Origin: Bifidobacterium breve
Lineage (GTDB): Bacteria; Myxococcota_A; UBA796; SXON01
Direction of reading: 5' to 3'
DNA: 64,000 nucleotides
Assembly: GCA_943328795.2 (NCBI GenBank)
Contig: CALQBK020000002.1
Location: 2,513 to 66,512, forward strand
Shown: positions 10,561 through 39,452 of the stretch, one piece after another
Layout: the number at the start of each line of letters is the position of its first letter
Numbering within the stretch: position 1 is the first letter of the stretch
Made by a program: the position numbers and the translations under genes
The notes under the pieces: model-generated
The model's database searches: none
What the model was told of the DNA's origin: nothing
Seen by the model: the letters and a program-made list of their open reading frames with translations, nothing else

Positions 10561-10574
10561 TCGCGTCGCGGGGC

Positions 10575-12718: not shown

Positions 12719-12756
12719 CCGCGCCGCGCCCGGGCGCTGCGCCAGCCCCGGCGGGC

Positions 12757-13182
12757 TCATCGTCCCCCCATCGGGAACGTGCGCTCGCGGAGCCGACCGT
12801 CGGCGTCCTTCACCTCCACGCAGATGGCTTGCCGCCGCTCGTCCCACCAGATCTCGGTGGGCTCGGCGTCCCCGAGGTCGAACCGGTGCGCGACCTCGGC
12901 GTCACCGTCCTCGCTCACTGTCCACCAGCACGCCACCGCTTGCCCGCTCGTCAGCACGTTGGCGGCGCCGTCGGGCGTGATCACGGCGTCCGGCCGCTCC
13001 ACCGGCTCGGGGCACACTGCGGCACGGGCGAGGCACACGACAAACGTGAGCAAGACGGCCATCGCGGCGCTGGTGGTGAAGCTGGCGAGAAACACGGACA
13101 CCTCGGGCTCCCGGGTCCAGTGCACGCCCCGTGCCCGGCGTCCGTCGGAGCGCCTTCTGCGCATGTCCCTGATTTTTCTCAC
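12757..13182 (-). CDS. Hypothetical small exported protein
   Basis: Hydrophobic signal-like segment VSVFLASFTTSAAMAVLLTFVVCLARA. GC3 bias. Start uncertain. Confidence 0.4.
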   Translation of the reverse strand: MRKIRDMRRRRSDGRRARGVHWTREPEVSVFLASFTTSAAMAVLLTFVVCLARAAVCPEPVERPDAVITPDGAANVLTSGQAVACWWTVSEDGDAEVAHRFDLGDAEPTEIWWDERRQAICVEVKDADGRLRERTFPMGGR

Positions 13183-13211
13183 AGCGGCTGGGTCGACGGC
13201 GGGGCTGACAG

Positions 13212-14807: not shown

Positions 14808-14856
14808 CGCCCACCAGGGCGCCTGGCACCGGATAAGCCCGGCGCTCGGAGGTCTC

Positions 14857-15735
14857 GTGGCGTTGCTCAAGGATCACGTTGTGTTGGCAACGCCCCCCGC
14901 GGCTCCCGCGACTCGCCGGGCCTGGCCCATCGGCAAGAAGTACGACGGCGGCTTCCGATTCGCCGAGCCCGCCCACGCGTTGGCCTACGCCGCCGCGACG
15001 AACGACAGCTCGCCGGCCTACCACGGGGCGACGCCGATCTGCCCGCCGATGTTCCACGTCCGGCTGATGCACAGCTTGATCTTCCAGATCGCGACAGATC
15101 CCGAGCTCGGCCTCGACCTGCTGCGGCTCGTCCACGGGGAGCATGACGCTCAGTTCCACCGGCCGATCCGGCCCTGGGACCTCGTCCACACGCGCGGAGA
15201 GCTGCTCAGCGTCGAGGAGAAGTCGTCGGGGCTGGTGGTCACCTCCGCGCTCTACGCGTTCGTGGACGGTGAGCTCGCGGTGTCGTGCCGCACGGTCTAC
15301 TTCATCCGGGGCGAGGCCAAGAAGGCCGAGTCCGTCGCCCCCGCACGACCCGCTACGCCCCCGGCCGCCCCGCCGCCGCCGGATGTCTCCTGCGCGGTGC
15401 ACGTGAGCTCCGACCAGTCGTTGAAGTACGCCGCGGCCTCGCTCGACGACAACCCGATCCACACCGACCCCGCTACGGCCACGGCCGCCGGCCTCCCCGC
15501 GATCATCGTGCAGGGGCTCTGCACGATGGCGCTGAGCGCGGCGGCGTTGACGCGCGCGCTCGCGGACAACGACGCGACCCAGGTCCGCCGCGTCGCGGTG
15601 CGCTTCGCTCGGCCCGTGCTCAACGGGCAAGCGCTCGTCGTCCACGGTTGGAACGCCGAGCACGGGTGCACGTTTACGACGGTCAACGAGGCGGGGCAGG
15701 CGGTGCTCTCGCAGGCCCACTTCGAGCTCGCGTAG
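14857..15735 (+). CDS. MaoC-like double hot-dog (R)-specific enoyl-CoA hydratase/dehydratase
   Basis: C-terminal hot-dog motif LDDNPIHTDPATATAAGLPAIIVQGLCTMA. GTG 14857 preceded by GGAGG. The track ORF 5' part overlaps the previous gene. Confidence 0.85.
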   Translation: MALLKDHVVLATPPAAPATRRAWPIGKKYDGGFRFAEPAHALAYAAATNDSSPAYHGATPICPPMFHVRLMHSLIFQIATDPELGLDLLRLVHGEHDAQFHRPIRPWDLVHTRGELLSVEEKSSGLVVTSALYAFVDGELAVSCRTVYFIRGEAKKAESVAPARPATPPAAPPPPDVSCAVHVSSDQSLKYAAASLDDNPIHTDPATATAAGLPAIIVQGLCTMALSAAALTRALADNDATQVRRVAVRFARPVLNGQALVVHGWNAEHGCTFTTVNEAGQAVLSQAHFELA

Positions 15736-16812
15736 GTGCCGACTGTCGACGCCCTCCGCGCACGCTTCTTCGAGGCCACGGGCTCTGCGTTCCCGCGCAC
15801 CGCCCAGCTGATCGCCCACCCGCGGCTGTACCAGGCCATGCTCGACATGGAGGCCGTCGGGGACGGCGTGCCAGCGCGCGTCGGGCCCTTCCGGCGCACC
15901 CAGCTGCTGGCGTGGGACCGGGACGCGTCCACGTGGGAGGCGTGGGACACGGTCTCGGGGCACCGGCTGCACATGGTGATCGGGCGCTGGACGCCCCCGC
16001 CGCGGGAAGCCGTGTTGCCCTGGACGCAGGTGGCGCCTACTGCGTGGGTGAGCCCGCCGCTCGAGCTCTCGCTCGCGGACCTGCTGCCCGATATCGGCGA
16101 GGACCCGTTGCTCTGCGCGCAGGTGCTCGTGGCCGCAGTGCGAGCGCTCCCGGACCCGTTCGGGGTGCTCGGCCCGAGCTGCATCGTGCGCTCCGGGGGG
16201 GCCTGGGTGGTGTCCGGGTACCCGGGCGGCGAGGAGGACGAGGGCGTCGCCGGGATCGGGCGCGTCGCGTCACTCTTTGGCCACCACGGGGAAGCGTTGG
16301 CCGAGCTCGAGGAGAGCCCGCAGCTCTCACCCGAGACGGTCGAGCAGCTGCTGCGGACCGAGCTCGCGGACCGGCTCGTGGCCCAGGTCCACCGCTTGCG
16401 GAGGCGTCCATTGCTCGAGGCCCGGCAGCGTCGCGTCGCGGGGGTTCGGCGGCTGGCGGATCGGCTCGCCCGGGCGGTTCGCCCGCCGGAGGGGCGCGGC
16501 TGCTTGTCGGCGGCGATCGACGGGTCGGTCGCCGTGCTCGAGGGCGACGGGGACGTGCTCCGCGGTGGCATCCGCGCAAGTGTCGGCGCGACGGCGGACC
16601 TGCCCGTGATCTGGCGGCGAGGGGAGCTGGATGGGCACGCGGTGCGACCGTTGCTCCGCCTGTGGTCGGGCCGGAGGCCTGCCGACGAGGAGCGTCGAAG
16701 CGCGGTGCAAGCCGAGCTCGCGGGGGACGACCGGTTCGTCGAGGCCGCGCTGGCGTTCCTGCGGCTCGGGGCCCACCTGCGCGTCGACCGGATGCTGCTC
16801 GCCCGGCTCTGA
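15736..16812 (+). CDS. Hypothetical protein
   Basis: GTG start directly after the MaoC TAG (15733-15735). GC3 bias. No family recognised. Confidence 0.55.
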   Translation: MPTVDALRARFFEATGSAFPRTAQLIAHPRLYQAMLDMEAVGDGVPARVGPFRRTQLLAWDRDASTWEAWDTVSGHRLHMVIGRWTPPPREAVLPWTQVAPTAWVSPPLELSLADLLPDIGEDPLLCAQVLVAAVRALPDPFGVLGPSCIVRSGGAWVVSGYPGGEEDEGVAGIGRVASLFGHHGEALAELEESPQLSPETVEQLLRTELADRLVAQVHRLRRRPLLEARQRRVAGVRRLADRLARAVRPPEGRGCLSAAIDGSVAVLEGDGDVLRGGIRASVGATADLPVIWRRGELDGHAVRPLLRLWSGRRPADEERRSAVQAELAGDDRFVEAALAFLRLGAHLRVDRMLLARL

Positions 16813-16820
16813 CGGGCTAG

Positions 16821-17861
16821 CTAGTGCTGCTTCCCGAGCCAGGTCTTGTACTTCAACCCGTCCAGCGCGTGCTCGGCCACGATGGGGTCCGGATCGTGGC
16901 CCAGCGCGTCGAGCCGCGCCTCGATGCTCGTCGACGGGACTGAGCGGTAGCGCCGGAGCGCGGTGTAGCGGACGCGTGGGCGCGGGTCGTCGAGCCACCG
17001 CGTGAACACCGCCCCGGCTTCGGGTCCGGGCTCGAGGTTGAAGTAGACCGACTCTACGAGCGCGATGACAACGTCCTCCTCGTCGGTCTCCCCGACGAAG
17101 CGCGAGGCGTCCGCGAACGTGCGGACGTGCGGTAGCTCAGCCTCGCCCGGGAAGTCTGGGAAAACCGCGTAGAGGCCGACCCGGTCGCCCGGCGGCAGGG
17201 CCGGGCCGGAGAGCACCGCGTCGTGCGCCCAGGCGTCGCTGGCGGCGTCGAAGCCGCCGGCGAGCCGCACCGCCTCGATGGCCCACGCCGTGCGGGCGGG
17301 GGGCCCGTCCGCGCCCTCGGCGTGCTTCGCGAGCGCAGGGTCGCACTGCCCGGTGCCGACGTAGCGATTGAACCACGCGCGCGCGCGCAGCACGTCCGCA
17401 GCGTCGTCGCCGAGGGCGCCCGGGAGCCGGCTCCGCGCCAGGTCCGCCAGCTGGGCCGGGGTCCGGGTGTCGTCCGGCGGCAAACCCCACCCCGCGTGGG
17501 TCAGGCAAAAGCGCCCAAAGCGCCCCGCCGCCGAGCACTGGGAGAGCGCGTCGTCCGTGTGCCCCGCACGGCCAAGCTGCTCGCCGGCGCGAAAATGGCA
17601 CTCGTCCTGCCACTTCCCGCGCGGCACACCCGCGCACGCGGCTGCGACCGTAGCGAGGTCACCGGCGGCCGCCGCTTGCGCGGCCGCCTCGACGCGACAC
17701 CCCACTGCGAGCTCGGCGTACGGCTCCCGTTCGCACGCGGTGAGCACCTCCACGGGGGTGCCCGTCGGCAGCGCGGAGAGGCGCGGGGCCGAGGGCGGCG
17801 CACCACACGCGAGCGCCGCCAGCACGGCAGCCCACGCGGGTACCGCTGCGGGGCGCGTCAC
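16821..17861 (-). CDS. Hypothetical lipoprotein with Cys-repeat N-domain and HEAT-like C-terminus
   Basis: Lipobox AVLAALAC. Repeats GKWQDECHFRAGE and FGRFCLTHAGWG resemble those in 33207-34184. C-terminal DDPRPRVRYTALRR...DPDPIVAEHALDGL is HEAT-like. GTG 17861 avoids overlap with the upstream gene. Confidence 0.6.
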   Translation of the reverse strand: MTRPAAVPAWAAVLAALACGAPPSAPRLSALPTGTPVEVLTACEREPYAELAVGCRVEAAAQAAAAGDLATVAAACAGVPRGKWQDECHFRAGEQLGRAGHTDDALSQCSAAGRFGRFCLTHAGWGLPPDDTRTPAQLADLARSRLPGALGDDAADVLRARAWFNRYVGTGQCDPALAKHAEGADGPPARTAWAIEAVRLAGGFDAASDAWAHDAVLSGPALPPGDRVGLYAVFPDFPGEAELPHVRTFADASRFVGETDEEDVVIALVESVYFNLEPGPEAGAVFTRWLDDPRPRVRYTALRRYRSVPSTSIEARLDALGHDPDPIVAEHALDGLKYKTWLGKQH

Positions 17862-23073: not shown

Positions 23074-24237
23074 ATGCGTGAAGTCGTCATCTGCGCAGCC
23101 GTTCGCTCGGCCGTCGGCAAAAGCGGTCGCGGCAGCCTCAAGGATACCCGTCCCGACGACATCCTCGGGCAGGTCATGAAGGGCGCGCTCGCCCGTGTCC
23201 CGAACCTCGACCCCGCCGCGATCGACGACGTGATCATCGGCACCGCGACGCCCGAGGCCGAGCAAGGCATGAACGTCGCTCGCATCGCGAGCATGATCGC
23301 GGGTCTCCCGGACACCGTCCCCGGCGTGACCATCAACCGCTTCTGCTCGTCCGGGTTGCAGTCGCTCGCGCAGGGCGCGGCGGCGATCGCGGCGGGCTGG
23401 CAAGACATCGCGCTCACGGGCGGCGTCGAGAGCATGAGCGTGCTCCCGATGGGCGGGCAGAAGTTGAGCCCGAACCCGGGGTTGGTCGAGCGTCGGCCCG
23501 AGGCGTACACGCCGATGGGCATCACCGCCGAGCTCGTCGCCGCGAAGTACAACGTCTCCCGCGTCGACCAGGACGCGTTCGCCGTCCGCTCGCACCAGAA
23601 GGCCATCGCCGCGATCCAGGGCGGCCGGTTCGTCGACGAGATCATCCCGGTCGAGACGCAAGTCGCGATCGACGGCGCGTGGAAGCCGATCACGTTCGTT
23701 GGGGACGAGGGCCCGCGCGCCGACACCTCGGCCGAGGGCTTGGCCAAGCTCAAGCCGGCGTTCAAGGTCGACGGTTCGGTCACGGCGGGCAACTCGTCGC
23801 AGACGAGCGACGGCGCGGGTGTGACGATCATCGCGGCGCGCGAGGTCGCTGAGCGGCTCGGGCTGCCGATCATCGGCATCCTGCGCAGCTACCAGGTCGC
23901 GGGCGTGCCGCCGGAGATCATGGGCATCGGCCCGATCGCCGCGATCCCCAAGGCGTTGGCGAAGGCCGGGCTGAAGAAGGAAGACATCGGCCTCATCGAG
24001 CTCAACGAGGCGTTCGCGGCGCAGTCGCTGGCGTGCGTGCGCGAGCTTGACCTGGACCCGGAGATCATCAACGTCAACGGCGGGGCCATCGCGCTCGGCC
24101 ACCCGCTGGGCTGCACGGGCGCCAAGCTGGTCGCGACGCTGCTGCACGAGATGCCGAGGCGGAACGCCCGCTATGGGCTCGTGAGCATGTGCATCGGTGG
24201 GGGGATGGGGGCCGCAGCGGTCATCGACCGCGCGTAG
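23074..24237 (+). CDS. fadA: Acetyl-CoA C-acyltransferase (thiolase)
   Basis: Thiolase blocks INRFCSSGLQS (active Cys), NEAFAAQ, NVNGGAIALGHPLGCTGA, CIGGGMG. Confidence 0.96.
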   Translation: MREVVICAAVRSAVGKSGRGSLKDTRPDDILGQVMKGALARVPNLDPAAIDDVIIGTATPEAEQGMNVARIASMIAGLPDTVPGVTINRFCSSGLQSLAQGAAAIAAGWQDIALTGGVESMSVLPMGGQKLSPNPGLVERRPEAYTPMGITAELVAAKYNVSRVDQDAFAVRSHQKAIAAIQGGRFVDEIIPVETQVAIDGAWKPITFVGDEGPRADTSAEGLAKLKPAFKVDGSVTAGNSSQTSDGAGVTIIAAREVAERLGLPIIGILRSYQVAGVPPEIMGIGPIAAIPKALAKAGLKKEDIGLIELNEAFAAQSLACVRELDLDPEIINVNGGAIALGHPLGCTGAKLVATLLHEMPRRNARYGLVSMCIGGGMGAAAVIDRA

Positions 24238-24304
24238 CGCGGCTCGATGACCGCAAGGCCGCGGAGCCAAGCGCGGCTCGAACGCGGCGGCGTTAGCTAC
24301 GCTC

Positions 24305-25009
24305 GTGTCCTCCGTTGGCGATGAGCCCACTCATGAGTCCGCCGTCGAAGACCCGGCGCCGCGCAGCGGCGTGCATCTCGCCATCGACCTGTACACGTCC
24401 TTTCCGACGTTGGTCGGCGCGAAGACCACCCTCGAGGTGCCGGGGCGCATCCGGTTCAGCCTCTCGGGGGGAGTGCTTCCCGCGGTCTACTTGTCGGCGA
24501 TCGACGACTACGGCGTGCGGGAGGGCTGGTACGACCGCGAGACGGCAGACCTGATCGAGGCCGTGCTTCACAACTCCCTGCTCGTGTCCGCGCACGTCGG
24601 CTGGCGGCCCTTCTCGAAGGCCGGGCTGCAGCTCGAGGGCGGGTACGGGTTCATCGGGCTCGGCGGCGGGCTCACCGGCGCCCAGGTGCTCGGCGAGGCC
24701 AGCGGCTACGACATGTCCTGGCTGCCGGACACCGGGCTGAATTACGTGACCAGCGCTGGGCTGCACCGCGTGGAGGCCAGCGCCGGGTGGGAGTTTGTGA
24801 TTAAGACGCACGTGCACGTCCAGCTCGACCTGGGGTACTCGCGCACGATCGCCGCCAAGACAGCCGTAGACCCGGACTTCGAGGTGCCGTGGCTCTTGGA
24901 GGACACCGAGGCCCACATGGAGCGCCAGGCCGAGGAGGCGCTGCACGACAAGCTGGTCGCCTACATGCACTCGCCGATCCTCGCGATCGGCGCGGGCTGG
25001 CGGTTTTAG
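24305..25009 (+). CDS. Hypothetical beta-rich protein (OMP-like C-terminus, no signal peptide visible)
   Basis: Alternating-residue strands and terminal ...AIGAGWRF. GTG start. Absence of a signal peptide lowers confidence. Confidence 0.4.
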   Translation: MSSVGDEPTHESAVEDPAPRSGVHLAIDLYTSFPTLVGAKTTLEVPGRIRFSLSGGVLPAVYLSAIDDYGVREGWYDRETADLIEAVLHNSLLVSAHVGWRPFSKAGLQLEGGYGFIGLGGGLTGAQVLGEASGYDMSWLPDTGLNYVTSAGLHRVEASAGWEFVIKTHVHVQLDLGYSRTIAAKTAVDPDFEVPWLLEDTEAHMERQAEEALHDKLVAYMHSPILAIGAGWRF

Positions 25010-25102
25010 CGCCGAACGGGCGTACTCCCGGCTACCACCGCCCCACCCCCCCGTAGACCCGCCGCCTCGCACCCTGTACGTTGTGGCACCGTAAGGGCTG
25101 TC

Positions 25103-26362
25103 ATGTACTTCGGCCGCATCCCCCGCTTCAGCCCGAGCTTCTCGTTGAAGGACGCGATCACCTCCGCGCGGCTGATCGCCCGTCCCCCCGCAGACGCCCC
25201 GCGCGTGCACGAATTCGAGCAGGAGTTCGCAAAATTCATCGGGGTCAAGCACGCGATCATGACCCCGAGCGCGCGGTACGCGTTCTACCTGATCCTGCAG
25301 GCGTACGGCATCGGCGCTGGCGACGAGGTCGTGATCCCGGGGCTCACCTACTTCGCGATCCCGTCGATCGCGGTCACGGCGGGCGTCACGCCGGTGTTCG
25401 CGGACGTCGGCCTGCGCACGCACGTGTTGGACCCAGCGGCGTTCGAGGCTGCGATCACCTCGAAGACGCGCGCGGTGGTCCCGACCCACCTGTACGGCAC
25501 GCCCTGCGATCTCGACGCCATCGGCGCGATCGCGAAGCGCCACGGGATCAAGGTCATCGAAGACTGCGCGCAGTCGACCGGCGCCCGGTACAAGGGACGG
25601 CGCGTGGGCTCGTTTGGGGACGCCGCGTACTACACGTTCGGCCTCACGAAGAACATGACGACGCTCACCGGCGCGATGGTGACGACCAGCGACGACCAAG
25701 TCGCCGAGCGGATCCGCGCTGAGATCGACAGCGGCGCGCCGGCCGCGTTGTCGCGCGCGCGCAAGGAAGCCGTCACGGGCCTCGCGATGAAGGTCGCGAC
25801 GCACCCGTTCGTGTACCCGCTCACGCTCCACCCGGTGATCGTGCTCGGCAACCGCTTCGGCGACGACCCGATCCACGAGCGCTTCGGCGAGCCGGAGGTG
25901 CTGTACGCCGAGCTGCCCAAGAGCTTCCGTCAGAACCGCCCGCGGGCCGTCCAAGCGGCGGTCGGCCTGCAGCAGTTGGCGCGGGTCGATGGGCTGAACG
26001 CCGCCCGGGCCCGGAACGGCCGGTTCTTGGACGAGCACCTCGCGCACGTCCCGAACCTGCTGGTGCCTGCGTACCCCGAGGGCGCCGAGCCCATCTACAT
26101 GAGCTTCGTGGTCCACCACGAGCGGCGGGACGACTTGAGCGCGGCGCTGCGGGCGCGCGGGGTCGACACCACCACCGGGTACATGAACGACTGCTCCGAT
26201 CACCCGCTGTTCCCGCAGTTCCGCCGGCCGTGCGCGAACGCCGCGGAGATCAAGCGCACGCAGCTGCACATCCCTGTGCACCCCAGCCTCGACGAACGTG
26301 ACCTGGCGCACATGGTCGAGGCCGTGCGGTCGGCGTGCCTGGCGCTTGGGAGAGCCGCGTGA
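25103..26362 (+). CDS. DegT/DnrJ/EryC1/StrS-family PLP-dependent aminotransferase
   Basis: FEQEFAKFIG, DEVVIPGLTYFA, HLYGTPCDLDAI..., IEDCAQS, FGLTKNMTT (PLP Lys). Confidence 0.9.
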   Translation: MYFGRIPRFSPSFSLKDAITSARLIARPPADAPRVHEFEQEFAKFIGVKHAIMTPSARYAFYLILQAYGIGAGDEVVIPGLTYFAIPSIAVTAGVTPVFADVGLRTHVLDPAAFEAAITSKTRAVVPTHLYGTPCDLDAIGAIAKRHGIKVIEDCAQSTGARYKGRRVGSFGDAAYYTFGLTKNMTTLTGAMVTTSDDQVAERIRAEIDSGAPAALSRARKEAVTGLAMKVATHPFVYPLTLHPVIVLGNRFGDDPIHERFGEPEVLYAELPKSFRQNRPRAVQAAVGLQQLARVDGLNAARARNGRFLDEHLAHVPNLLVPAYPEGAEPIYMSFVVHHERRDDLSAALRARGVDTTTGYMNDCSDHPLFPQFRRPCANAAEIKRTQLHIPVHPSLDERDLAHMVEAVRSACLALGRAA

Positions 26363-27417
26363 CCACCTCCGGGCGCGCCACCCCGCGCGGGCCCTACTTC
26401 CGCGGCGCGATCGGCGCGTTGCGGTACCGGCTCACCGGTCACCGGATGCCGTTGGCGCTGACAGCGCGCGTCACGTGGCGATGCGACGCGTTGTGCGCCG
26501 GGTGCGGGATGCCGAACGTCGCGAAGCCCGAGCTCACCACGGCGGAGTGGGTGAGCGTACTGGACGAGGCCGCGGCGCTCGGCTGCGTGCGCGTTTGCTT
26601 CACGGGCGGCGAGCCGCTGCTCCGGGACGACATCGGCGACCTCGTCGATCGCTGCGCCTCGCTCGGCATCGCGAGCACGCTCGAGACCAACGGCGGCCGG
26701 CTGCCCCAGCGCGCGCGGTTCTTGCGGTCGCTCGGGCAGGTGCTCGTCCCCGTGGAGGCGGGCGCCGATGCCCATGACGGGGTGCACGAGCCCGGCAGCC
26801 ACGCAGCGGCGCTCGCGGGCCTGCGCGCCGCCCACGACGCTGGGATCCCCGTCAGCACGGTGACGACCCTGTGTACGAAGAACAGGCGGGTGGCCGATCT
26901 CGAGGCGGTGCTGGACGTCGCCGAGTCGCTCGGCGGTACGGCGCTGTTCCAGCTGTTGCACGCCGAGGCGCCGTTGGCGTCGCGCGGAGCGCGCCGGATG
27001 CGGCTCGAGCCGGACGAACTGAAGAAGATCCTCGGCTGGCTCGCCGCTGCCCAGCGGAGCGGGCGGTCGGTCGGCATGTCCGCCCGCACCCTGCGGTACC
27101 TCCAGACCTGGCCGGACCTGCGCGAGATCGTCAGCTCCGCGCCACACGAGGACGTGCACTGCAGCGCGGGCAACCTGCACTGCGTCGTCGATGCCGATGG
27201 CGGCGTGTTGCCCTGCGTGCTCCGGCCGACCGCCGGGGCGCCGAGCGTGCGGGACGGTGGGTTCGCCGCCGCGTTCGGCGCGCTGCTCGACCAGCCCTGC
27301 CGCGCGTGTGCGGTCGCTCCGCTGGTGGAGTACAACTACCTCTTCAACTTGGACCGGGGGGCGGTGCGTGAGCGCCTCGCCCGGGTCCGCACCCCCATCT
27401 CCCGGAGCGCAGCGTGA
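26359..27417 (+). CDS. Radical SAM protein with SPASM/twitch-like C-terminal Cys cluster
   Basis: CX3CX2C = CDALCAGC, GGEPLL. C-terminal C-SAGNLHC...LPC...CRAC. GTG start overlaps the DegT stop (GTGA 26359-26362). Confidence 0.85.
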   Translation: MTTSGRATPRGPYFRGAIGALRYRLTGHRMPLALTARVTWRCDALCAGCGMPNVAKPELTTAEWVSVLDEAAALGCVRVCFTGGEPLLRDDIGDLVDRCASLGIASTLETNGGRLPQRARFLRSLGQVLVPVEAGADAHDGVHEPGSHAAALAGLRAAHDAGIPVSTVTTLCTKNRRVADLEAVLDVAESLGGTALFQLLHAEAPLASRGARRMRLEPDELKKILGWLAAAQRSGRSVGMSARTLRYLQTWPDLREIVSSAPHEDVHCSAGNLHCVVDADGGVLPCVLRPTAGAPSVRDGGFAAAFGALLDQPCRACAVAPLVEYNYLFNLDRGAVRERLARVRTPISRSAA

Positions 27418-28592
27418 AGCTCGGTACCTCGCAGACCGTGCGCATCGCGCGCGCTTTCGTCACCCGTCGCGTGCCCGTTTACGCGCACTTCGGGATCACC
27501 CACCGGTGCAACCTGACGTGCAAGATGTGCGGCATCTGGCGCTACGGCAACCGCAAGGAGGAGCTGGACCTCGGCGAGATCGACCAGATGGCCAAGCGCA
27601 TGGCGCGGCTCGGCGTCGTACAGCTCTCGATTGGCGGGGGAGAGCCGTTCTCGTGTGAGTACCTCGAGGACGCTGCGGGGCTGTTCGTCAAGGCCGGGCT
27701 GAACGTGCGGGTGCTGACCAACGGCGTCGGCGTACCGCCCGAGCGCATCGAGAAGTGTGTCAAGAACGGCGTCCGCAACTTCTCGATCTCGCTCGACTCG
27801 CTCTACCGCGAGCGGTTCGACTACATCTGCGAGAAAGAGGGCAGCTGGGACGACGCGGTCGGGTCGATGGCGCTGATCTCCCGGCTCCTGGCCGAGACGA
27901 AGGGCGGCGAGCACGGCTTGCCGAGCATCAACTGCGTGGTCTCGAACCTGAACCTGGAGGAGCTGCCCGACATCGTGCGGTTCGCGAAGGCGATCGGCTT
28001 CCACGTCAGCTTCTTGCCGGTCGAGCTCTTGGCGGACCCGAAGGACGGCGTGCGCAACTGGGAGGCGCGGTTCGTCCGCTACCGGCCCGAGATGGCCGTG
28101 GACACCAACGCCGAGAACGTGAACACCCGCATCGACGCCGCTTACGACACGCTCGTGCGGATGAAGCGCGAGGGCTGGCCGATCCTGAACAGCACGCCGT
28201 ACCTGGAGGCGAGCCGGAACTACCTGAAGACCGGGCGGTTCCCGGCCGAGGGGTGCGACGCCGGGCGGCTGTACTTCAGCGTCGCGCCGAACGGCCAGTT
28301 CACGATCTGCCACCGCACTGAGCAGCAACACCTGCACTTCCTGGACCCGAAGTTCGAGGAGTACTGGAACAGCGAGCTGTACGAGCGCCGCCGGCAGATG
28401 GAGGCCGGCAGCTGCGAGGGGTGCATGCGCGCCTGCTGGATCGACACCAGCTACATGTTCCGCACGATGGAGGGCTTCTTCGAGACGGTCAAGATGGCCG
28501 GACTGCCCCGTCGGCGGGTTGGCGTCAGCTGGCCGGAGGCGCGGGCCTGGGCGCGGTCGGACGCTTCGCCGCAGTACGCGATCGCGAAGTAG
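27414..28592 (+). CDS. Radical SAM protein with SPASM-like C-terminal Cys cluster (second, non-identical)
   Basis: CX3CX2C = CNLTCKMC, GGGEPF. C-terminal GCDAG...FTIC...SCEGCMRAC. GTG start overlaps the preceding stop (GTGA 27414-27417). Confidence 0.9.
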   Translation: MKLGTSQTVRIARAFVTRRVPVYAHFGITHRCNLTCKMCGIWRYGNRKEELDLGEIDQMAKRMARLGVVQLSIGGGEPFSCEYLEDAAGLFVKAGLNVRVLTNGVGVPPERIEKCVKNGVRNFSISLDSLYRERFDYICEKEGSWDDAVGSMALISRLLAETKGGEHGLPSINCVVSNLNLEELPDIVRFAKAIGFHVSFLPVELLADPKDGVRNWEARFVRYRPEMAVDTNAENVNTRIDAAYDTLVRMKREGWPILNSTPYLEASRNYLKTGRFPAEGCDAGRLYFSVAPNGQFTICHRTEQQHLHFLDPKFEEYWNSELYERRRQMEAGSCEGCMRACWIDTSYMFRTMEGFFETVKMAGLPRRRVGVSWPEARAWARSDASPQYAIAK

Positions 28593-28600
28593 GGTGGCGC

Positions 28601-28996
28601 ATGCTGCTAGTGCTGGCGACGCTTGCCAGGGCGACTGAGCCGACGCCGCTGCCCCGGACGCGGACGGCCCTCGTATTGATCAACACCGGGGCCATCGCCA
28701 CCGCCGCGGGCGCGGTGACACTCGGCGTTGGCGCGTGGTTGTTCACCAGCCCGTTTGCGCAGGATGGCGAGGGCTGCATCCCGCCGCGGCTTCAGGGGCA
28801 AAGTGCGTGCGGCCCCTACACGCTCTGGACGGGCCTGGCGCTCGGCACTGCCGGCGTCGCTGCGATGACGCTGTCGTTCCCGTTGGTGGAGGTCGGCCTC
28901 CGGCTCCCGCGGGAGCACTCCCAGGGCGGGGAGGAGACCGGCTCCATCTACGTAGAGGCTGGAGCGAACGGCCTGCGCCTCCATGGCACCTTCTGA
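28601..28996 (+). CDS. Hypothetical small membrane protein
   Basis: ATG 9 nt after the radical SAM stop. Two to three hydrophobic helices (ALVLINTGAIATAAGAVTLGVGAWLF; LWTGLALGTAGVAAMTLSF). Confidence 0.45.
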   Translation: MLLVLATLARATEPTPLPRTRTALVLINTGAIATAAGAVTLGVGAWLFTSPFAQDGEGCIPPRLQGQSACGPYTLWTGLALGTAGVAAMTLSFPLVEVGLRLPREHSQGGEETGSIYVEAGANGLRLHGTF

Positions 28997-29005
28997 ACCT
29001 GGCCG

Positions 29006-29785
29006 CTAGCGCCGCGCCACCAGCGCGACCCGCGCCTGCCGGACCGGCTTGACCACGATCTCGTCGATGTTGACATGCGCGGGGCGGGACACCGCGAAGT
29101 GCACCAAGTCGGCGATGTCGGCCGCCACGAGGGGGTCGATCCCGGCGTACGGCTTCTTCGCCTTCTCAACGTCGCCATCGAAGCGCACGACGCTGAACTC
29201 GGTCTCGACGAGCCCCGCGTTGATCTCGGTGATCCGGATGGGCTCGCCGTGGAGCTCGAGCCGCAGCGTCTGCGAGATCGCCCGCACGGCGTGCTTGGAC
29301 GCGGCGTACCCGCCGCCTCCAACGTAGGTCTCGAACCCGGCGATGCTGCCGATGTTGACGATGTGCGCGTGGCCCTCGACGTCGCCGCGGGGGGTGGCCC
29401 GGGGGACCCCGCACGCGCGACGCAGGGCCGGGAGCAGGGCCTGGGTGACGCGGTAGAGCCCGAACACGTTGGTCTCGAACATCTCCCGCCAGTGCGCCTC
29501 GGGCGCGTCCTCGATCTTCCCGAGGCCGCGGGAGAGCCCCGCGTTGTTGACCAGCACGTGCAAGGGGCGGCCCCCGACGTGGGCGGCCAGCGCGCTCACG
29601 CTGGCGGGGTCCGTCACATCCAACGCCACGGCCTCGACGCGGCCCGGCGCCAGGTCGGCGGCCAGCGCCTGGACGCGCTCCAGCCGACGCGCGCCTGCGA
29701 CCACGGTGTACCCGAGCTCCACGAGCCTCCGCACGGACTCGGCGCCGATCCCGCTCGACGCCCCGGTGACGACCGCGAGCTCCAT
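29006..29785 (-). CDS. Short-chain dehydrogenase/reductase (SDR)
   Basis: TGASSGIG, NNAG, Y-x3-K (YAASKHAV). ATG shares one base with the upstream TGA (TGATG at 29783-29787). Confidence 0.92.
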   Translation of the reverse strand: MELAVVTGASSGIGAESVRRLVELGYTVVAGARRLERVQALAADLAPGRVEAVALDVTDPASVSALAAHVGGRPLHVLVNNAGLSRGLGKIEDAPEAHWREMFETNVFGLYRVTQALLPALRRACGVPRATPRGDVEGHAHIVNIGSIAGFETYVGGGGYAASKHAVRAISQTLRLELHGEPIRITEINAGLVETEFSVVRFDGDVEKAKKPYAGIDPLVAADIADLVHFAVSRPAHVNIDEIVVKPVRQARVALVARR

Positions 29786-30633
29786 CACCCGCTCCTCGCT
29801 GCCTGCTGACGGACCCGCTCGAACAACAGCACGCCCGCCGTCACGCTCACGTTCAGGCTCTCGAGGCCGCCCGCGAGGGGCACCCCGACGATGTGATCGC
29901 ACCGCTTGCGCACGGGGTCGGTCAGGCCCTTGTCCTCGCCGCCGAGCACGAACGCGACGCACCCCGAGAGCGGGAGATCCCACGGCGCCGCGCCGTCCAT
30001 GTCCGCCCCGACGATCAAGAACCCGGCCCGGTGGAGCTGCGCGAGCGCGGAGCTGATCCCCTCGCGTACGACGGGCACCGCCTCCGCCCCGCCCATGCTC
30101 ACGCGGTGGACCACCGGCGTGATGCCCTTCCCGCGTTGGACCGGGATGATCACGGCGTCCACCCCGGCGCCGAGCGAAGACCGCAGGATCGCCCCCAGGT
30201 TGTGCTCGTACTGCACCTCGTCCACCAGCACGAAGCACGCGTCCCGGCCCCCGCGAATCGCCGTCTCGATCGCCTCCGAGACGGTCATCTCGGGGAACGG
30301 CTCAGCCTCGGCGATCACGCCGTTGTGCACGCCCGTCACGCTCATCCGGTCGAGCATCTGCCGGTCGACGCGTAGCACGCGCGCGCCGCCGAGCTCGATG
30401 ATCTGCCGCACCTTGTCGCCGGGATCGGCCCCGACCTTCGCGGCAGCGTCAAGCCAGATCTTTAGGACCTTCCTCCGCTTTCGGACCAGCGCCTCGAGGA
30501 CGACGTTCCGTCCTTCCAGGCGGTCCCCCGAGGGCTCAGGTGCGTTGCGCGCTCCGCCTTCGGGGCGACCACGCCCAGCGGGGGGGCGGTCGGCGGGGGC
30601 AGGCCGAGGGGGTGGGCGTCGACGATCGTGCAC
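29785..30633 (-). CDS. TrmH/SpoU-family RNA 2'-O-methyltransferase (RlmB-like)
   Basis: SpoU blocks NLGAILRS, FVLGGEDKGL, IPLAGGLESLNVSVTAGVLLFE. Pro/Arg-rich N-terminal tail; start uncertain. Confidence 0.85.
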   Translation of the reverse strand: MHDRRRPPPRPAPADRPPAGRGRPEGGARNAPEPSGDRLEGRNVVLEALVRKRRKVLKIWLDAAAKVGADPGDKVRQIIELGGARVLRVDRQMLDRMSVTGVHNGVIAEAEPFPEMTVSEAIETAIRGGRDACFVLVDEVQYEHNLGAILRSSLGAGVDAVIIPVQRGKGITPVVHRVSMGGAEAVPVVREGISSALAQLHRAGFLIVGADMDGAAPWDLPLSGCVAFVLGGEDKGLTDPVRKRCDHIVGVPLAGGLESLNVSVTAGVLLFERVRQQAARSG

Positions 30634-30669: not shown

Positions 30670-31662
30670 TCACACCTGGCGCGACGCGGACCGCTTGACG
30701 AGGTCGCGCAGGCTCAGGCCCTCCTTCAGGACGTAGTACGTGCCGATCGAGATGGTGAACGCGAACTGCCCCAGGTGCAGCAGGAGCGCGAACGTGCGCG
30801 CTTTGTCGCCGTCGGCGTGCAGCACGGTCAGCGCGGCGACGCACATCGCCTCGAACCCGCCGAAGAACCCTGGGGTCGGGATCGCCGCCAAGCCCGTGAG
30901 CGTGAGCGTCCACGTGAACACGACCGCGCCGAGGTCGCTCGGCAACCCCGGGAAGCTCGCCATGCTGGCCCACACCGCGATGAGCGTGAACACCCACACG
31001 AGCAAGCTAAGGCCGAGCACCCGGGCCATGTTCAAGGGGTTCACCATCAGCCGTCGCGCGCCCTCGACGAACCGCCGCACCATGAGCCCGGCGGGCAGCT
31101 TGTCGGTGTAGACGAGCGCGCGGTCGCCCGCGAGGGTCAGCGCCAGGAGCAGCGTGACGCCACCCCCTACGCTGATGCCGAACAGGCGCTGGCCAGCGGC
31201 CATGACGTCGGTCTCCGGCGTGGGCAACCACGGCGTCGGCACCATGATCCCGGCGGGCGGCAGCTCGACCATGAAGCCGACGCTGAGGAGGAACCCGAGC
31301 AGGACCAGGATGTCCGCCAGCCGCTCCATGAAGATCGCGGCGACGCCCTCCCCAAACGGGACGCCCTCGTCGGTCAAGAGCGTCGGCCGCACCAGCTCGC
31401 CCATCCGAAACGGGATGACGGTGATCGCGAGGTAGCCGATGCCGGTGATGCTCATCAGCCGCCAGAAGGGGACGGGGCGCCCGAGCAGGATGCGGGTGCG
31501 CCAGCAGCGGATCGCCTGGGTCATCCAATAGCAGCTCCACGCGAGCACGAAGCTGCGCCAGTCGAACGCCGCCAAGCTCTGCGCGGCGTCCTGGACGTCC
31601 ATGCCCCAGAGCACCGCGAGCAAGCCAGCAGCGGTCAACACGAGGACGATTGCGAGCTTCAC
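30670..31662 (-). CDS. UPF0104 / lysylphosphatidylglycerol-synthase-TM-region (flippase-like) membrane protein
   Basis: About 8 TM helices with the family pattern ...RWRTRILLG...ITGIGYLAITVIPFRMGELVRP... GTG start overlaps the upstream stop (GTGA 31659-31662). Confidence 0.78.
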   Translation of the reverse strand: MKLAIVLVLTAAGLLAVLWGMDVQDAAQSLAAFDWRSFVLAWSCYWMTQAIRCWRTRILLGRPVPFWRLMSITGIGYLAITVIPFRMGELVRPTLLTDEGVPFGEGVAAIFMERLADILVLLGFLLSVGFMVELPPAGIMVPTPWLPTPETDVMAAGQRLFGISVGGGVTLLLALTLAGDRALVYTDKLPAGLMVRRFVEGARRLMVNPLNMARVLGLSLLVWVFTLIAVWASMASFPGLPSDLGAVVFTWTLTLTGLAAIPTPGFFGGFEAMCVAALTVLHADGDKARTFALLLHLGQFAFTISIGTYYVLKEGLSLRDLVKRSASRQV

Positions 31663-32402
31663 GTGGGGGGCCTCAAAAGTTGCAAGCCCAGCAGGTCGTT
31701 CCGCAGGTCTTTCGCGTCGACGAGGCCGTACTCGGGAGGGGGTGTCGCTTGCGACACGTCAGAGCGAAACAGCAGGTCCCAGACGGGCAGGGCGTTGGCG
31801 TAGTTGCCGTCGCAGAGCTCGGCGTCGCGCACGTGGTGCCAGCTGTGGAACAGCGGGTTGTTGAACACGTAGCGGAGCCACGCGGGTCGTGGGCACCAGC
31901 GCGTGTTGCTGTGTTCGAGCGCGTCTGCGACGATGCCGGGGGTGAAGGCGACCGGGATCACCCACGAGGCCCAGCTCGACGTGTCGAGCAGCACGCCAAA
32001 GACGAGGATGGGGAGCGCCGAGAGCTGGAGAAAGTCCACGACGTGCATCCGGAACCCGGCGGTGCTGTCCAGCGTGCGGAGCGAGTGGTGGACGCGGTGA
32101 AAGGTCCACAAGAACGGGACGCGGTGGTGCGCACGGTGCAGCCAGTACCGCAAGAAGTCGATGAGCACGAACGCGAACAGGGCCTGCGCGGCGCCGCTGG
32201 GCAGCCAAGACGTCGAGAGCCAGCCCGCGCGTGCTTCGAGCACGCCGGTGAGCCCGATGCCGAGCTTGAGCAGGTACAAGCTGCCGCCGGTCACGACGTT
32301 CACAACGGAGTCCCGGTCGAGCAGCGGCCGCGGATCTCGGGGCCACGCCGCTGCGAGGACCAGCCCGAGGGCGAGGGCGACGACCTGGACGGCGATCAGC
32401 AC
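31659..32402 (-). CDS. Fatty acid hydroxylase / sterol desaturase-family membrane di-iron enzyme
   Basis: His boxes HRAHHRV, HRVHHS, SWHHV. GTG 32402 chosen because the track ORF 5' end runs through the palindromic repeat. Confidence 0.8.
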   Translation of the reverse strand: MLIAVQVVALALGLVLAAAWPRDPRPLLDRDSVVNVVTGGSLYLLKLGIGLTGVLEARAGWLSTSWLPSGAAQALFAFVLIDFLRYWLHRAHHRVPFLWTFHRVHHSLRTLDSTAGFRMHVVDFLQLSALPILVFGVLLDTSSWASWVIPVAFTPGIVADALEHSNTRWCPRPAWLRYVFNNPLFHSWHHVRDAELCDGNYANALPVWDLLFRSDVSQATPPPEYGLVDAKDLRNDLLGLQLLRPPT

Positions 32403-38234: not shown

Positions 38235-39452
38235 CTAGCCCGGCCGAGGGGTGATGCTCGGCGCGCCGGGCGGGCGGATGGGTTTTGAGCCCGGGGCGCC
38301 GGGCGGGCCCTTGGGCGGCTTGTCGCCGCCCGGGGGCTTCGTCAGCGCGGGCGGCGGCTTCGAAGGCTTGGCCTTCTCAGGCGGCACGCGGCCCTCGATG
38401 ATGTCGTCGACATCGGACGTGGCGTCCTCCGACGGGCCCTTCGAGAGCTTGACGAGCCCGCGCACGAACTCGCCTCGCGCATACCAATCGTCGCCGTCAC
38501 GCAGCACGTGGATGGTCTGCTCAGGCTTGCCCTCGGCGCGCAGCGTCAGGTCGAACGCGGCGACCAGGGTGGCCGGCTCCGCGCCCTCCTGCACGTAGGC
38601 GGTGGACTTGAGCTTCAGCGCGCTGTCGACCCAGTTTGCGAACGTGACGTCCTTGTCCGTAGTGGCAGGTGCCTCCGCAACGGGGTCAACGGGTGCGGCC
38701 GGGTCAGCCGGCGCGGCCTCCGGCACGGCGGGCGCACCGCCCCCGTCCCGGGACCAGTAGGCAGCGGCCTTGTCGCTGGTGTTCTTGTGCGTCCACGACA
38801 CCGTGCTCGCGCCTTGACCGAGCGAGGCCCCAACGATCTCCTCGGGCTTAAGGTCGGTGAGCGAGCGCTCGGGGAGCCGCGTCGCCGCGAACTTGAGCGA
38901 CTTGAACACCTCGTCGTCCACCACGTAGATGTGGCCCGACGCGGCGTCCTTGACGTAGCGATCCTTGGTGCCGTAGGTCTCGCCGCCGAGCGCGAGCGTA
39001 CGCTCGGTGCCGTCCAGCGTGACCGCCAACGTGGTGTCCGGCGCCGTGAGGCCGAACGCCTCCATCTTGTCGGCGGGCACGTCATCCAGCGAGCGCACCG
39101 CCATCAGCGGGGCCAGCCCGTCCACGAGCTTGTCCGCGGCGCTGCCCGCCTTGAACTTCGTGACCTTCTTCTCGGAGGTCTCGGTGAACTCACCGGGCTT
39201 GTCCGGGTTCGGGGTCTTCTTCTTCTTGTTCTCGGTGACCGTCACCCACCCGTAGGAGCCGAGGCCGTCGCTGCGGACCTCGTACTCGACCGTGAGGTCG
39301 GGGGACTGGTACACGGCCTTCTGCAGGTCGGTCTTCTTCCCCTCGAACAGGACGGTGCCGACACGGGGCTTCTCTTCACCCTCCGTGTAGTGCATCCAGG
39401 ACAGGCTCATCGTGATGAGCAGGATCCCACCAAACAGCGCAACGGATCTCAT
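38235..39452 (-). CDS. DUF4340-like protein (operon 1) with Pro/Lys-rich tail
   Basis: N-terminal TM anchor, repeated beta-rich modules (FGLTAPDTTLAVTLDGTERTLALGGET...YVVDDEVF) like its paralog at 56608-58161. ATGA overlap with the upstream gene. Confidence 0.72.
   Translation of the reverse strand: MRSVALFGGILLITMSLSWMHYTEGEEKPRVGTVLFEGKKTDLQKAVYQSPDLTVEYEVRSDGLGSYGWVTVTENKKKKTPNPDKPGEFTETSEKKVTKFKAGSAADKLVDGLAPLMAVRSLDDVPADKMEAFGLTAPDTTLAVTLDGTERTLALGGETYGTKDRYVKDAASGHIYVVDDEVFKSLKFAATRLPERSLTDLKPEEIVGASLGQGASTVSWTHKNTSDKAAAYWSRDGGGAPAVPEAAPADPAAPVDPVAEAPATTDKDVTFANWVDSALKLKSTAYVQEGAEPATLVAAFDLTLRAEGKPEQTIHVLRDGDDWYARGEFVRGLVKLSKGPSEDATSDVDDIIEGRVPPEKAKPSKPPPALTKPPGGDKPPKGPPGAPGSKPIRPPGAPSITPRPG

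Follow-up and report, generated by a model that had tools for sequence, protein, structure and literature searches.

A conserved, uncharacterised aminotransferase and radical SAM enzyme module of a Myxococcota-type lineage

What does an enzyme set act on when a PLP-dependent aminotransferase is translationally coupled to two radical SAM enzymes? Three such genes lie on the plus strand of the window, the 64,000-nucleotide stretch of DNA that we analysed. A sequence-only reading had taken them, together with a small membrane protein, for an uncharacterised modification cassette.

Three coupled genes and their enzyme families

The first gene encodes a DegT/DnrJ/EryC1-type PLP aminotransferase of 419 amino acids (25103–26362; Pfam PF01041, 266 bits). 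It is followed by genes for two non-identical radical SAM enzymes, rSAM1 with 352 amino acids (26359–27417; Radical_SAM, 70.6 bits) and the core enzyme rSAM2 with 392 amino acids (27414–28592; Radical_SAM, 74.1 bits). The ORFs and direct reading of the sequence confirmed two GTGA overlaps on the plus strand, one joining the DegT stop codon to the rSAM1 start codon (26359–26362) and the other the rSAM1 stop codon to the rSAM2 start codon (27414–27417). A Shine–Dalgarno-like GGGAGAG or GGAG lies upstream of each. The longest rSAM1 ORF begins at 26335, and we place the start at the GTG at 26359. GC3 of the three genes is 0.93–0.95, matching real genes nearby. Neighbours of the module in the window are a FadB-like protein, a thiolase, an unknown 234-amino-acid ORF, an SDR, SpoU, LPG_synthase_TM and FA_hydroxylase. 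As the earlier reading had stated, no nucleotidyltransferase, dehydratase, glycosyltransferase or cyclase gene was found within about 7 kb of the module in the window.

The aminotransferase resembles enzymes that act on sugars. Profile matches in the PDB were perosamine synthase and a sugar transaminase (205–208 bits), and the alignment showed a conserved catalytic lysine (Lys183, in TFGLTKN) as well as a family-specific insertion of about 55 amino acids (residues ~209–263). The structure predicted by AF2 (pLDDT 85.7) reached a target TM-score of 0.85 to perosamine synthase, DesV, WbpE and ArnB in Foldseek. Its best NCBIfam match was ArnB, at 179 bits versus a cutoff of 631.

Both radical SAM enzymes carry the expected CX3CX2C motif, CDALCAGC in rSAM1 (C42/C46/C49) and CNLTCKMC in rSAM2 (C32/C36/C39), and both have conserved cysteines in their C-terminal parts. 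There are exactly four in rSAM1 (C268, C286, C314 and C317; alignment A5), with a twitch-like spacing of C-X17-C...C-X2-C. The five of rSAM2 (C281-X12-G-X4-C299...C334-X2-C337-X3-C341) repeat this spacing and add C-X3-C. On these patterns both enzymes are twitch-like, and each has a predicted site for a single auxiliary cluster. The earlier description of both as SPASM enzymes with auxiliary cysteines holds for the cysteines; a full SPASM domain was not detected, as rSAM2 scored 18.3 bits, below the Pfam cutoff of 21.5, and rSAM1 gave no match. DUF3463 also stayed below its cutoff for rSAM2 (16.9 versus 31.3 bits).

The best PDB match of rSAM1 was PqqE (54 bits), and all of its NCBIfam matches lay far under their cutoffs. 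For rSAM2, the top Foldseek matches of the predicted structure (AF2, pLDDT 93.3), with TM-scores of about 0.5–0.6, comprised the nucleotide- or sugar-handling radical SAM enzymes BlsE, viperin, DesII and MoaA, and the RiPP maturases SuiB, PqqE and SkfB; AbmM was a further structural neighbour of the former kind. For none of the three proteins did a curated NCBIfam model reach its cutoff. PDB sequence and Foldseek searches returned only remote matches (best by sequence BlsE, 40–46 bits; best TM-score about 0.6), and we found no paper on this cassette.

A two-gene core, an accessory gene and an orphan

The invariant core of the module is the DegT–rSAM2 pair. The two genes are adjacent in 92 of the 107 informative loci and at most 4 kb apart in 98, and the identities of their products co-vary (r = 0.87). 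DegT orthologues share 64–94% identity and those of rSAM2 57–94%, the latter with a mean column identity of 76%. By comparison, rSAM1 belongs to a small, fast-evolving family and is carried by only about a third of the loci (35/107); it is an accessory to the core, ancestral but dispensable. The trio is co-conserved outside the window genome, and its invariant part is the pair. This tight family is limited to one uncultured lineage, with rSAM2 borne by the genomes of about 115 species; the 80 genome matches listed are all MAGs, most of them with Myxococcota or Deltaproteobacteria labels. Distant lineages have the trio too, at 33–39% identity in locus L093 and 47% in L176. The view of an uncharacterised cassette stands: no curated NCBIfam model reaches its cutoff, and co-conservation in other genomes runs against the refutation that had been proposed.

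The 131-amino-acid ORF that had been counted as part of the cassette (28601–28996, plus strand) fared differently. It appears to be coding, judging by its GC3 of 0.86 in the correct frame and two hydrophobic segments in its hydropathy profile. The ORF sits inside a 413-nt spacer (28593–29005) that is specific to this window; relatives at 87–94% identity have 14–74 nt at the same place, and similarity to the closest of them ends at the rSAM2 stop codon and restarts at the SDR stop codon. Because tblastn also gave no match across more than 170 related loci, we consider the ORF a strain-specific orphan outside the conserved module. It has no Pfam, NCBIfam or PADLOC match.

Genomic contexts and known systems

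In most relatives the pair lies between def-fmt-rpe and an operon for an ABC-2 permease, a GldG-like protein, DUF4340 and an OMP, which follows directly downstream and in L003 overlaps the rSAM2 stop codon. Linkage to this operon has been lost in the sub-lineage of the window. Nucleotidyltransferase, dehydratase and cyclase genes were linked neither in the window nor in most relatives. Remote homologues of all three proteins (33–47% identity, with the same DegT insertion) share radical-SAM-rich clusters in other taxa (L093, L096, L156, L169 and L175; GC 36–68%). These clusters, themselves uncharacterised, contain many enzymes missing from the window: a Tes/TrsS-like radical SAM enzyme (Zn_ribbon_HMPTM), a UbiU-like U32 hydroxylase, a GNAT protein and four to seven B12-radical SAM enzymes with best matches to HpnJ, BchE and 'lipid biosynthesis B12-binding/radical SAM'. 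One of them also holds PLD and a PMT_2/ArnT-like GT-C protein. Fusions were found as well: a DegT::rSAM1-like protein encoded by one 757-amino-acid ORF (L096), and GT2-rSAM-rSAM proteins of the same domain order, one of which lies in a Wzm/Wzt glycan cluster.

The sequence-only reading had invoked the DesI/DesII and BtrS/BtrN pairs, which are reasonable analogies of logic; the module belongs to neither family. In the 2-deoxystreptamine pathway of butirosin, the DegT-family aminotransferase BtrS (BtrR) works with BtrN to oxidise and then transaminate; BtrN is a radical SAM enzyme with a twitch domain, in which four cysteines ligate an auxiliary [4Fe-4S] cluster (PMC9012708). The module shares the pairing of a DegT protein with a twitch-like radical SAM enzyme, and its C-X17-C...C-X2-C spacing resembles the twitch pattern. 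However, BtrN has no detectable sequence relationship to rSAM1 or rSAM2 (for rSAM2, no PDB match at E <= 0.01), is 49th among the Foldseek matches of rSAM2 (TM 0.38/0.58) and is 100–140 amino acids shorter than either. The module has two different radical SAM enzymes, lacks 2-DOI synthase and other aminoglycoside genes, and is set in the core genome of Myxococcota MAGs, not in an antibiotic cluster.

BlsE, the cytosylglucuronate decarboxylase of blasticidin S biosynthesis, is the best PDB match of rSAM2 by sequence and structure (40.6 bits; TM 0.60/0.70) and likewise modifies a small molecule, a sugar nucleoside, within the same MoaA/PqqE-like branch. Yet identity is only 18%, its NCBIfam model (TIGR04466) gives rSAM1 48.8 bits where the cutoff is 400 and does not appear among the 25 families listed for rSAM2, BlsE has no aminotransferase partner, and the module has no nucleoside-antibiotic genes. 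Pairs of an NAD-dependent oxidoreductase and a DegT enzyme (WbpB/WbpE, GnnA/GnnB, KdnB/KdnA and GenD2/GenS2) likewise take two steps to turn a sugar hydroxyl into an amine, and WbpE and ArnB are among the structures nearest to the DegT protein here. No NAD-dependent partner is linked in the module, where the oxidoreductase role would fall to a radical SAM enzyme; a classical GFO_IDH_MocA and DegT pair does occur near an rSAM2 homologue in L177.

Candidate chemistry and substrate

By analogy we tentatively favour, at somewhat below an even chance, a module that installs an amino group by radical SAM dehydrogenation followed by PLP-dependent transamination, its substrate being a sugar-like or lipid-linked component of the envelope. 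A 5'-deoxyadenosyl radical formed by rSAM2 would abstract hydrogen from a carbinol carbon of the sugar-like substrate, and a fully cysteine-ligated auxiliary [4Fe-4S] cluster would accept the second electron to yield a ketone. The DegT enzyme would then transaminate the ketone, for a net change of C-OH to C-NH2 that follows BtrN/BtrS logic. In lineages that keep it, rSAM1, with a four-cysteine twitch site like that of BtrN, may oxidise the substrate a second time, or epimerise it, at a different position. In favour of this model are the translational coupling, the DegT fold and catalytic lysine, the twitch-like cysteine patterns, the linkage of the pair, the recurrence of the trio in distant lineages, the fusions, the ABC-2 operon downstream in most relatives and the nucleotide- or sugar-handling radical SAM enzymes among the structural neighbours of rSAM2. 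Several observations count against this model: in the window, as in most relatives, no substrate-forming gene accompanies the module, rSAM2 is as distant from BtrN as described above, RiPP maturases are among its top structural matches, its fifth conserved cysteine has no role in the scheme, no function is known for the DegT insertion, which in the window protein is no more than moderately hydrophobic, and the ABC-2 operon is not linked in the sub-lineage of the window.

The substrate might instead be a membrane lipid of the ether, membrane-spanning or polyprenyl-derived kind, or the head group of such a lipid; amination would then occur on a hydroxylated lipid carbon, and the pair would be a reduced remnant of the larger radical-SAM-rich clusters. 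The partners of the remote homologues in those clusters, the insertion, which is clearly hydrophobic in their DegT proteins, and the FadB, thiolase, FA_hydroxylase and LPG_synthase_TM genes in the window all point that way. We nevertheless consider this fairly unlikely: the Tes, HpnJ and lipid-radical SAM matches are all far under curated cutoffs, the tight Myxococcota family usually lacks the cluster partners, the DegT fold is that of an ordinary NDP-sugar aminotransferase, the insertion of the window protein is hydrophobic only to a moderate degree, and the lipid genes of the window are on the other strand or are conserved in close relatives only. A deoxygenation of the DesI/DesII type, known from TDP-desosamine, in which the DegT enzyme aminates a keto-sugar and radical deamination then gives a deoxy-keto sugar, would remove a hydroxyl rather than add an amine. 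In the module the aminotransferase gene comes first with radical SAM genes behind it, and in DesI/DesII a DegT-family aminotransferase likewise adjoins a radical SAM enzyme, the two acting on one sugar carbon; DesI scores comparatively well among the NCBIfam models for the DegT protein, and DesII structures rank 11th among the Foldseek matches of rSAM2. The DesI score is 149 bits against a cutoff of 650, DesII superposes poorly (TM 0.41–0.54, rmsd 12–14 Å), and no 4,6-dehydratase, NDP-transferase or other TDP-sugar gene that could supply a 4-keto-6-deoxy sugar is linked. Both radical SAM enzymes keep an auxiliary site of four or five cysteines, whereas DesII is not known to have an auxiliary cluster, and we judge this route quite unlikely.

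The very high sequence conservation (mean column identity 76%), the position beside def-fmt-rpe in most genomes and partial NCBIfam or Foldseek matches to MoaA, NirJ2, AhbD and viperin would suit a housekeeping role in making a cofactor or a nucleotide-derived metabolite: a nucleotide or tetrapyrrole would undergo chemistry of the MoaA, NirJ, AhbD or viperin kind, and the aminotransferase would convert an intermediate. None of those matches extends beyond the radical SAM core and all are far under cutoff, no further cofactor-pathway genes are linked, and a distribution limited to one uncultured lineage, with about 115 species, would be unusual for a general cofactor; such a role is improbable. 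Cross-linking or other modification of a ribosomal peptide by one or both twitch/SPASM-like enzymes, as by PqqE, SkfB and SuiB, seems very improbable. These maturases are among the best sequence and structure matches, and many of the partial NCBIfam matches are to peptide maturases, but all their models fall far under cutoff. Since the CX3CX2C motif begins at residue 32 in rSAM2 and 42 in rSAM1, an N-terminal RRE/PqqD-like domain would not fit; neither a PqqD-like gene nor a conserved short ORF adjoins the module across more than 100 loci, the sole small ORF nearby being the orphan, and the one constant partner is an aminotransferase of the sugar type.

For the window locus, the earlier view that the substrate is not deducible largely holds; contexts in other genomes reduce the options to chemistry on envelope glycans, lipid-linked sugars or membrane lipids. 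Under the oxidation–transamination model, the likely substrate is a precursor of the cell envelope that is processed at the membrane; an NDP-sugar, a sugar linked to polyprenyl or lipid, and a polar lipid head group would all qualify. The reasons are that the pair heads the ABC-2/GldG-like/DUF4340/OMP operon in most relatives and that remote homologues are fused to GT2 or lie in Tes-like/B12-radical SAM clusters. The three genes make up a real, uncharacterised module of enzymes that is strongly conserved in a Myxococcota-type lineage, uncultured and mostly aquatic.

Three coupled genes and their neighbours

The window, with a GC content of about 70%, carries three forward-strand open reading frames (ORFs) that encode a PLP aminotransferase (DegT, 25103–26362) and two radical-SAM proteins (rSAM1, 26359–27417; rSAM2, 27414–28592). 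Their GC3 values of 0.93–0.95 match those of the flanking FadB-like and thiolase genes, and a purine-rich Shine-Dalgarno-like element stands 5' of each of the GTGA overlaps that join them. For rSAM1, the start at 26359 was preferred to an upstream GTG at 26335, in agreement with the N termini of orthologues. The sequence-only reading had placed the two overlaps at exactly the positions where we find them (26359–26362 and 27414–27417) and had reported the motifs CDALCAGC and CNLTCKMC, both of which are present. Taken together, the ORFs, their GC3, the overlaps with their Shine-Dalgarno-like elements, the motifs and the Pfam scores given below demonstrate that the core observation of three coupled ORFs is correct and is no chance product of high-GC sequence. 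Scanning 24200–29200 for promoter and terminator consensus sequences returned no sites.

The same reading had counted a 131-aa membrane protein as a member of the cassette, and this was not borne out. The ORF concerned (28601–28996, forward strand) is coding-like, with an in-frame GC3 of 0.86 and two hydrophobic segments. Nucleotide homology with the four closest loci stops at the rSAM2 stop codon (28592) and restarts at the stop codon of a convergent SDR gene (29006); in those loci the two genes are separated by only 14–74 nt, and tblastn over more than 170 related loci found no homologue of the ORF. We rejected the membrane protein as a partner because the ORF, which occupies a window-specific spacer, is a strain-specific orphan outside the cassette. 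Upstream, a 234-aa ORF (24305–25009, forward strand; GC3 0.92) ends 93 nt before DegT and has no match in Pfam, NCBIfam or PADLOC. Its only homologue, in the related locus L013 (66% identity), is 1.25 kb from DegT there, and the ORF is probably outside the module.

An aminotransferase and two twitch-type radical-SAM proteins

DegT scored 266 bits against DegT_DnrJ_EryC1 (PF01041; Pfam cutoff 19.8), and its AF2 model (pLDDT 85.7) shows the fold-type I architecture of an ordinary sugar aminotransferase, with Foldseek target TM-scores of 0.82–0.85 to GDP-perosamine synthase, DesV, WbpE and ArnB. ColD and E1, the dehydratase members of the family, have histidine at the position of the Schiff-base lysine. 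In DegT this lysine (Lys183, in TFGLTKN) is invariant among 16 orthologues and lines up with the region around the active-site lysine in perosamine synthase and in the transaminase 7b0d; because it is invariant, we assign the protein as an aminotransferase rather than a dehydratase of the ColD/E1 type. None of the named DegT equivalogs in NCBIfam (ArnB, PseC, DesI, WecE, RfbH and LegC) reached its curated cutoff, the best being ArnB at 179 bits (cutoff 631), with PseC at 162 (423) and DesI at 149 (650). The subfamily is tight, at 64–94% identity; about 55 aa (residues ~209–263) form a conserved insertion that is missing from all solved DegT structures. This insertion is common to the DegT proteins of the extended clusters described below and is more hydrophobic there; it is only moderately hydrophobic in the window protein, where a membrane anchor remains a hint.

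Both radical-SAM proteins match PF04055 (70.6 bits for rSAM1 and 74.1 for rSAM2; Pfam cutoff 29.5) and conserve the CX3CX2C motif, at C42/C46/C49 in rSAM1 and C32/C36/C39 in rSAM2. They had been labelled SPASM enzymes, a class for which we required a Pfam score above cutoff and seven conserved cysteines (CX9-15GX4C...CX2CX5CX3C...C) serving two auxiliary clusters. Against the SPASM model (PF13186), rSAM2 scored 18.3 with a cutoff of 21.5, and rSAM1 gave no match. Twitch domains are truncated SPASM domains with one auxiliary cluster, held at a site of three to four cysteines made of a CX9-15GX4C half-motif and a CX2C (PMC9012708). Throughout orthologues and distant homologues, rSAM1 keeps exactly four C-terminal cysteines (C268-X12-G-X4-C286...C314-X2-C317) and rSAM2 keeps five (C281-X12-G-X4-C299...C334-X2-C337-X3-C341). 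The auxiliary cysteines of the earlier label were thus found but its full SPASM domain was not, and both proteins show the truncated twitch arrangement, each with a predicted site for a single auxiliary cluster.

At the superfamily level, the assignments to DegT, radical SAM and the twitch type hold; membership of the named families BtrN, DesII, BlsE, HpnH, PqqE-type maturases, ArnB, PseC and DesI fails throughout. No NCBIfam model was passed by the trio proteins or their distant homologues, and searches of the trio, these homologues and their cluster partners with NCBIfam, Pfam and PADLOC found no curated, named family above cutoff. When rSAM1, rSAM2 and DegT were compared with solved structures (by PDB sequence and, for two proteins, by AF2 and Foldseek), only remote matches were obtained, to which no functional subgroup could be assigned. 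The rSAM2 model (pLDDT 93.3) was closest to BlsE (TM 0.60/0.70, 18% identity), with SuiB, PqqE, SkfB, viperins, DesII and MoaA ranking next. Orthology to BtrN, the 2-deoxy-scyllo-inosamine dehydrogenase, was rejected, with no PDB sequence match at E ≤ 0.01 for rSAM1 or rSAM2 and a Foldseek rank of 49 for rSAM2 (TM 0.38/0.58), as was the adenosylhopane synthase HpnH (DUF3463, 16.9 versus 31.3 for rSAM2; TIGR03470, 41.6 versus 225 for rSAM1).

Co-conservation, genomic setting and wider relatives

We searched 5.8 billion proteins with rSAM2 and considered the best 120 matches. These were 64–90% identical, with a mean column identity of 76%, and by this measure the family is unusually constrained. 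With one genome per species scanned, 115 genomes carried rSAM2; the 80 carriers listed are all metagenome-assembled genomes (MAGs) from lakes and seawater, labelled Myxococcota, Deltaproteobacteria or 'proteobacterium'. A few listed carriers have obviously wrong labels, such as Klebsiella, and several contigs that carry this Myxococcota-type pair (L017, L021, L022, L038, L039, L041 and others) are evidently mislabelled, with titles that name, for example, MAGs of 'Klebsiella pneumoniae', 'Enterobacterales' or 'Cognaticolwellia'.

Among 124 non-redundant loci, 107 had enough upstream DNA for linkage to be counted. DegT and rSAM2 were adjacent in 57 and flanked rSAM1 in 35; DegT lay 0.3–4 kb upstream in 6, and the remaining 9 had no DegT in the flank. 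The identities of DegT and rSAM2 to the window proteins were correlated (r = 0.87, 92 loci). Because of this linkage and covariation across loci, the possibility raised by the sequence-only reading, that the genes are not co-conserved outside this genome, can be set aside. Its conserved cassette is narrowed to the DegT–rSAM2 pair, with rSAM1 as an accessory gene. rSAM1 evolves much faster, at 38–50% identity where rSAM2 retains 70–76%. Intermediate members of the family lack rSAM1, which is present in the window's clade, in the most divergent members and in two outgroup loci, L093 and L176; this distribution suggests an ancestral trio from which rSAM1 was lost in one large sub-clade. Inserts between DegT and rSAM2 in L055, L063 and L079 (TSP3 repeats, a rhodanese and unknowns) were unrelated and uninformative.

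In most relatives the pair is divergent from def-fmt-rpe and is directly followed by genes for an ABC-2 permease, a GldG-like ABC_transp_aux protein, DUF4340 and a beta-barrel OMP (def in 66 of the 124 loci, fmt in 56, ABC-2 in 58, GldG-like in 51 and DUF4340 in 40); in L003 the permease start overlaps the rSAM2 stop. The ABC-2 linkage is broken in the window's sub-lineage (at least 87% identity), where a convergent block comes next instead, encoding in the window an SDR (29006–29809), a SpoU methylase (29800–30633), an MprF-like flippase-domain protein (LPG_synthase_TM, 30688–31662) and an FA_hydroxylase (31668–32402), all on the reverse strand. Synteny of this block with the trio was seen only in these closest relatives (the contig of P0001, L010 and L011). 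Two GldA/GldF/GldG-like ABC-2 systems lie 10–28 kb from the pair, also on the reverse strand: one at 39449–43052 (ABC_tran, 42009–43052; permease, ~41296–41994; a 615-aa ABC_transp_aux-like protein, 39449–41296) and one at 56608–61290 (ABC_tran, 60331–61290; a 717-aa permease and ABC_transp_aux ORF, 58161–60314; DUF4340, 56608–58248). Elsewhere in the window, the class II tRNA synthetase domain (Lys/Asp/Asn type) of an 834-aa ORF (5849–8353, forward strand) is confined to residues ~389–828, behind an N-terminal extension of ~385 aa with no Pfam match, and a bacterial lysyl oxidase homologue (PF01186, 131 bits; 46135–47328, reverse strand) adjoins genes for a TPR protein, an M14 carboxypeptidase and a GH31 glycosidase.

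Exhaustive HMMER searching returned 106 representative clusters at E < 1e-30, with identity falling in steps from 58% to 47% to ~40%. The DegT-rSAM-rSAM2-like order recurs in L176 (47% identity). In L093 an operon (1873–17101) encodes DegT, rSAM1-like and rSAM2-like proteins (34%, 33% and 39% identity) together with a Tes/TrsS-like radical-SAM protein (Zn_ribbon_HMPTM), a UbiU-like U32 protein and its partner, a GNAT, four B12-radical-SAM proteins and two SPASM radical-SAM proteins. Clusters of this type also occur in L096, L111, L113, L121, L123, L152/153, L156 and L169, on contigs of 36–68% GC, and a related type in L175 (27–20917) has seven B12-radical-SAM proteins, a Tes-like radical-SAM protein, an amine-oxidase-type flavoprotein, a PMT_2/ArnT-like GT-C, an NmrA-type reductase and a PLD. 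DegT and rSAM2-like homologues are present in all these radical-SAM-rich clusters, which may serve to tailor membrane lipids or glycolipids.

A single 757-aa ORF in L096 (6306–8579, forward strand) joins DegT, which has the insertion here too, with an rSAM1-like domain, a Rosetta-stone fusion that supports a functional link between the two. More remote homologues (24–30% identity) are tandem proteins with two radical-SAM domains, usually behind an N-terminal GT2; in several, including GT2 fusions of 1100–1500 aa (P0218, at L094 8001–11669; P0231, P0235, P0250 and others), the first domain best matches rSAM1-like proteins and the second rSAM2. The cluster around P0218 is a polysaccharide cluster of the Wzm/Wzt ABC-transporter type and also encodes a B12-radical-SAM protein. 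The strongest evidence for a substrate shared by all three proteins comes from these fusions and recurrences, which also suggest that this substrate is tied to the chemistry of glycans, lipid-linked sugars or membrane lipids.

Proposed chemistry and its alternatives

The module is real and conserved; its chemistry is a proposal. In our main, tentative model, rSAM2 would act as a radical-SAM dehydrogenase: it would remove a hydrogen at a carbinol carbon, and an electron would go to its cysteine-ligated auxiliary cluster, an electron-accepting role that has been proposed for the auxiliary clusters of BtrN, PqqE and SuiB (PMC9012708). DegT would transaminate the resulting ketone, and rSAM1, where kept, may perform a second oxidation or an epimerisation. 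What the data show are the domain families, the catalytic residues, the candidate cluster-binding cysteines, the gene coupling, the co-conservation and the fusions; both reaction and substrate are what we infer. BtrS/BtrN is the closest system and serves as a working analogy only, as family membership of BtrN fails.

A membrane-lipid substrate, which the radical-SAM-rich clusters would accommodate, differs from the main model chiefly in substrate rather than in chemistry, and we consider it possible but doubtful. Deoxygenation of the DesI/DesII type is unlikely: DesII, the TDP-4-amino-4,6-dideoxyglucose deaminase, appears among the structural matches, with TM-scores of 0.41–0.54 and an rmsd of 12–14 Å, and is absent from the sequence matches. 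Cofactor or nucleotide chemistry seems to us improbable. SuiB, PqqE and SkfB are among the structural matches of rSAM2, and RiPP maturation (PqqE, SkfB, SuiB or AlbA type) is nevertheless the least probable of these readings. With the radical-SAM motif starting as early as residue 32 or 42, there is no N-terminal RRE or PqqD-like domain, the related loci have neither a PqqD gene nor a conserved short peptide ORF, and maturase models score far below cutoff. For anti-phage viperins (pVip), PADLOC matches the radical-SAM core alone (29–56 bits over ~150 residues, not full length). Both the RiPP and the defence readings were rejected because their defining features are missing.

To our knowledge, partnerships of a DegT aminotransferase with a radical-SAM enzyme come from only a few antibiotic pathways, and full-text literature searching did not find a description of this cassette (background on bacterial lipid radical-SAM enzymes is given in PMC11868695). 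The general logic is already familiar to specialists; the partnership here draws on two unclassified radical-SAM families and on a DegT subfamily that is distinct. DegT and rSAM2 form a highly constrained pair that keeps its chromosomal place next to def-fmt-rpe throughout an uncultured lineage of Myxococcota, and its homologues recur, sometimes fused, in large radical-SAM clusters.

A broader and rather speculative reading is that DegT-rSAM1-rSAM2 forms the portable core of an unrecognised, widespread pathway that aminates or tailors lipid-linked sugars or membrane-spanning or ether lipids in uncultured bacteria. Tes-like C–C coupling enzymes, multiple B12-radical-SAM methylases and O2-independent UbiU-like hydroxylases would have been recruited to it in other phyla, and in aquatic Myxococcota only a pair would be left, supplying a GldG-type ABC-2 exporter. 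If true, the pathway would yield a new envelope lipid or glycolipid that contains nitrogen and could serve as a class of biomarkers. Solving the chemistry would assign a function to two unannotated radical-SAM families and one DegT subfamily, would probably uncover a new amino-sugar or amino-lipid of the envelope, and would provide an entry point to the Tes-like/B12-radical-SAM clusters, which are candidates for the synthesis of unusual bacterial membrane lipids.
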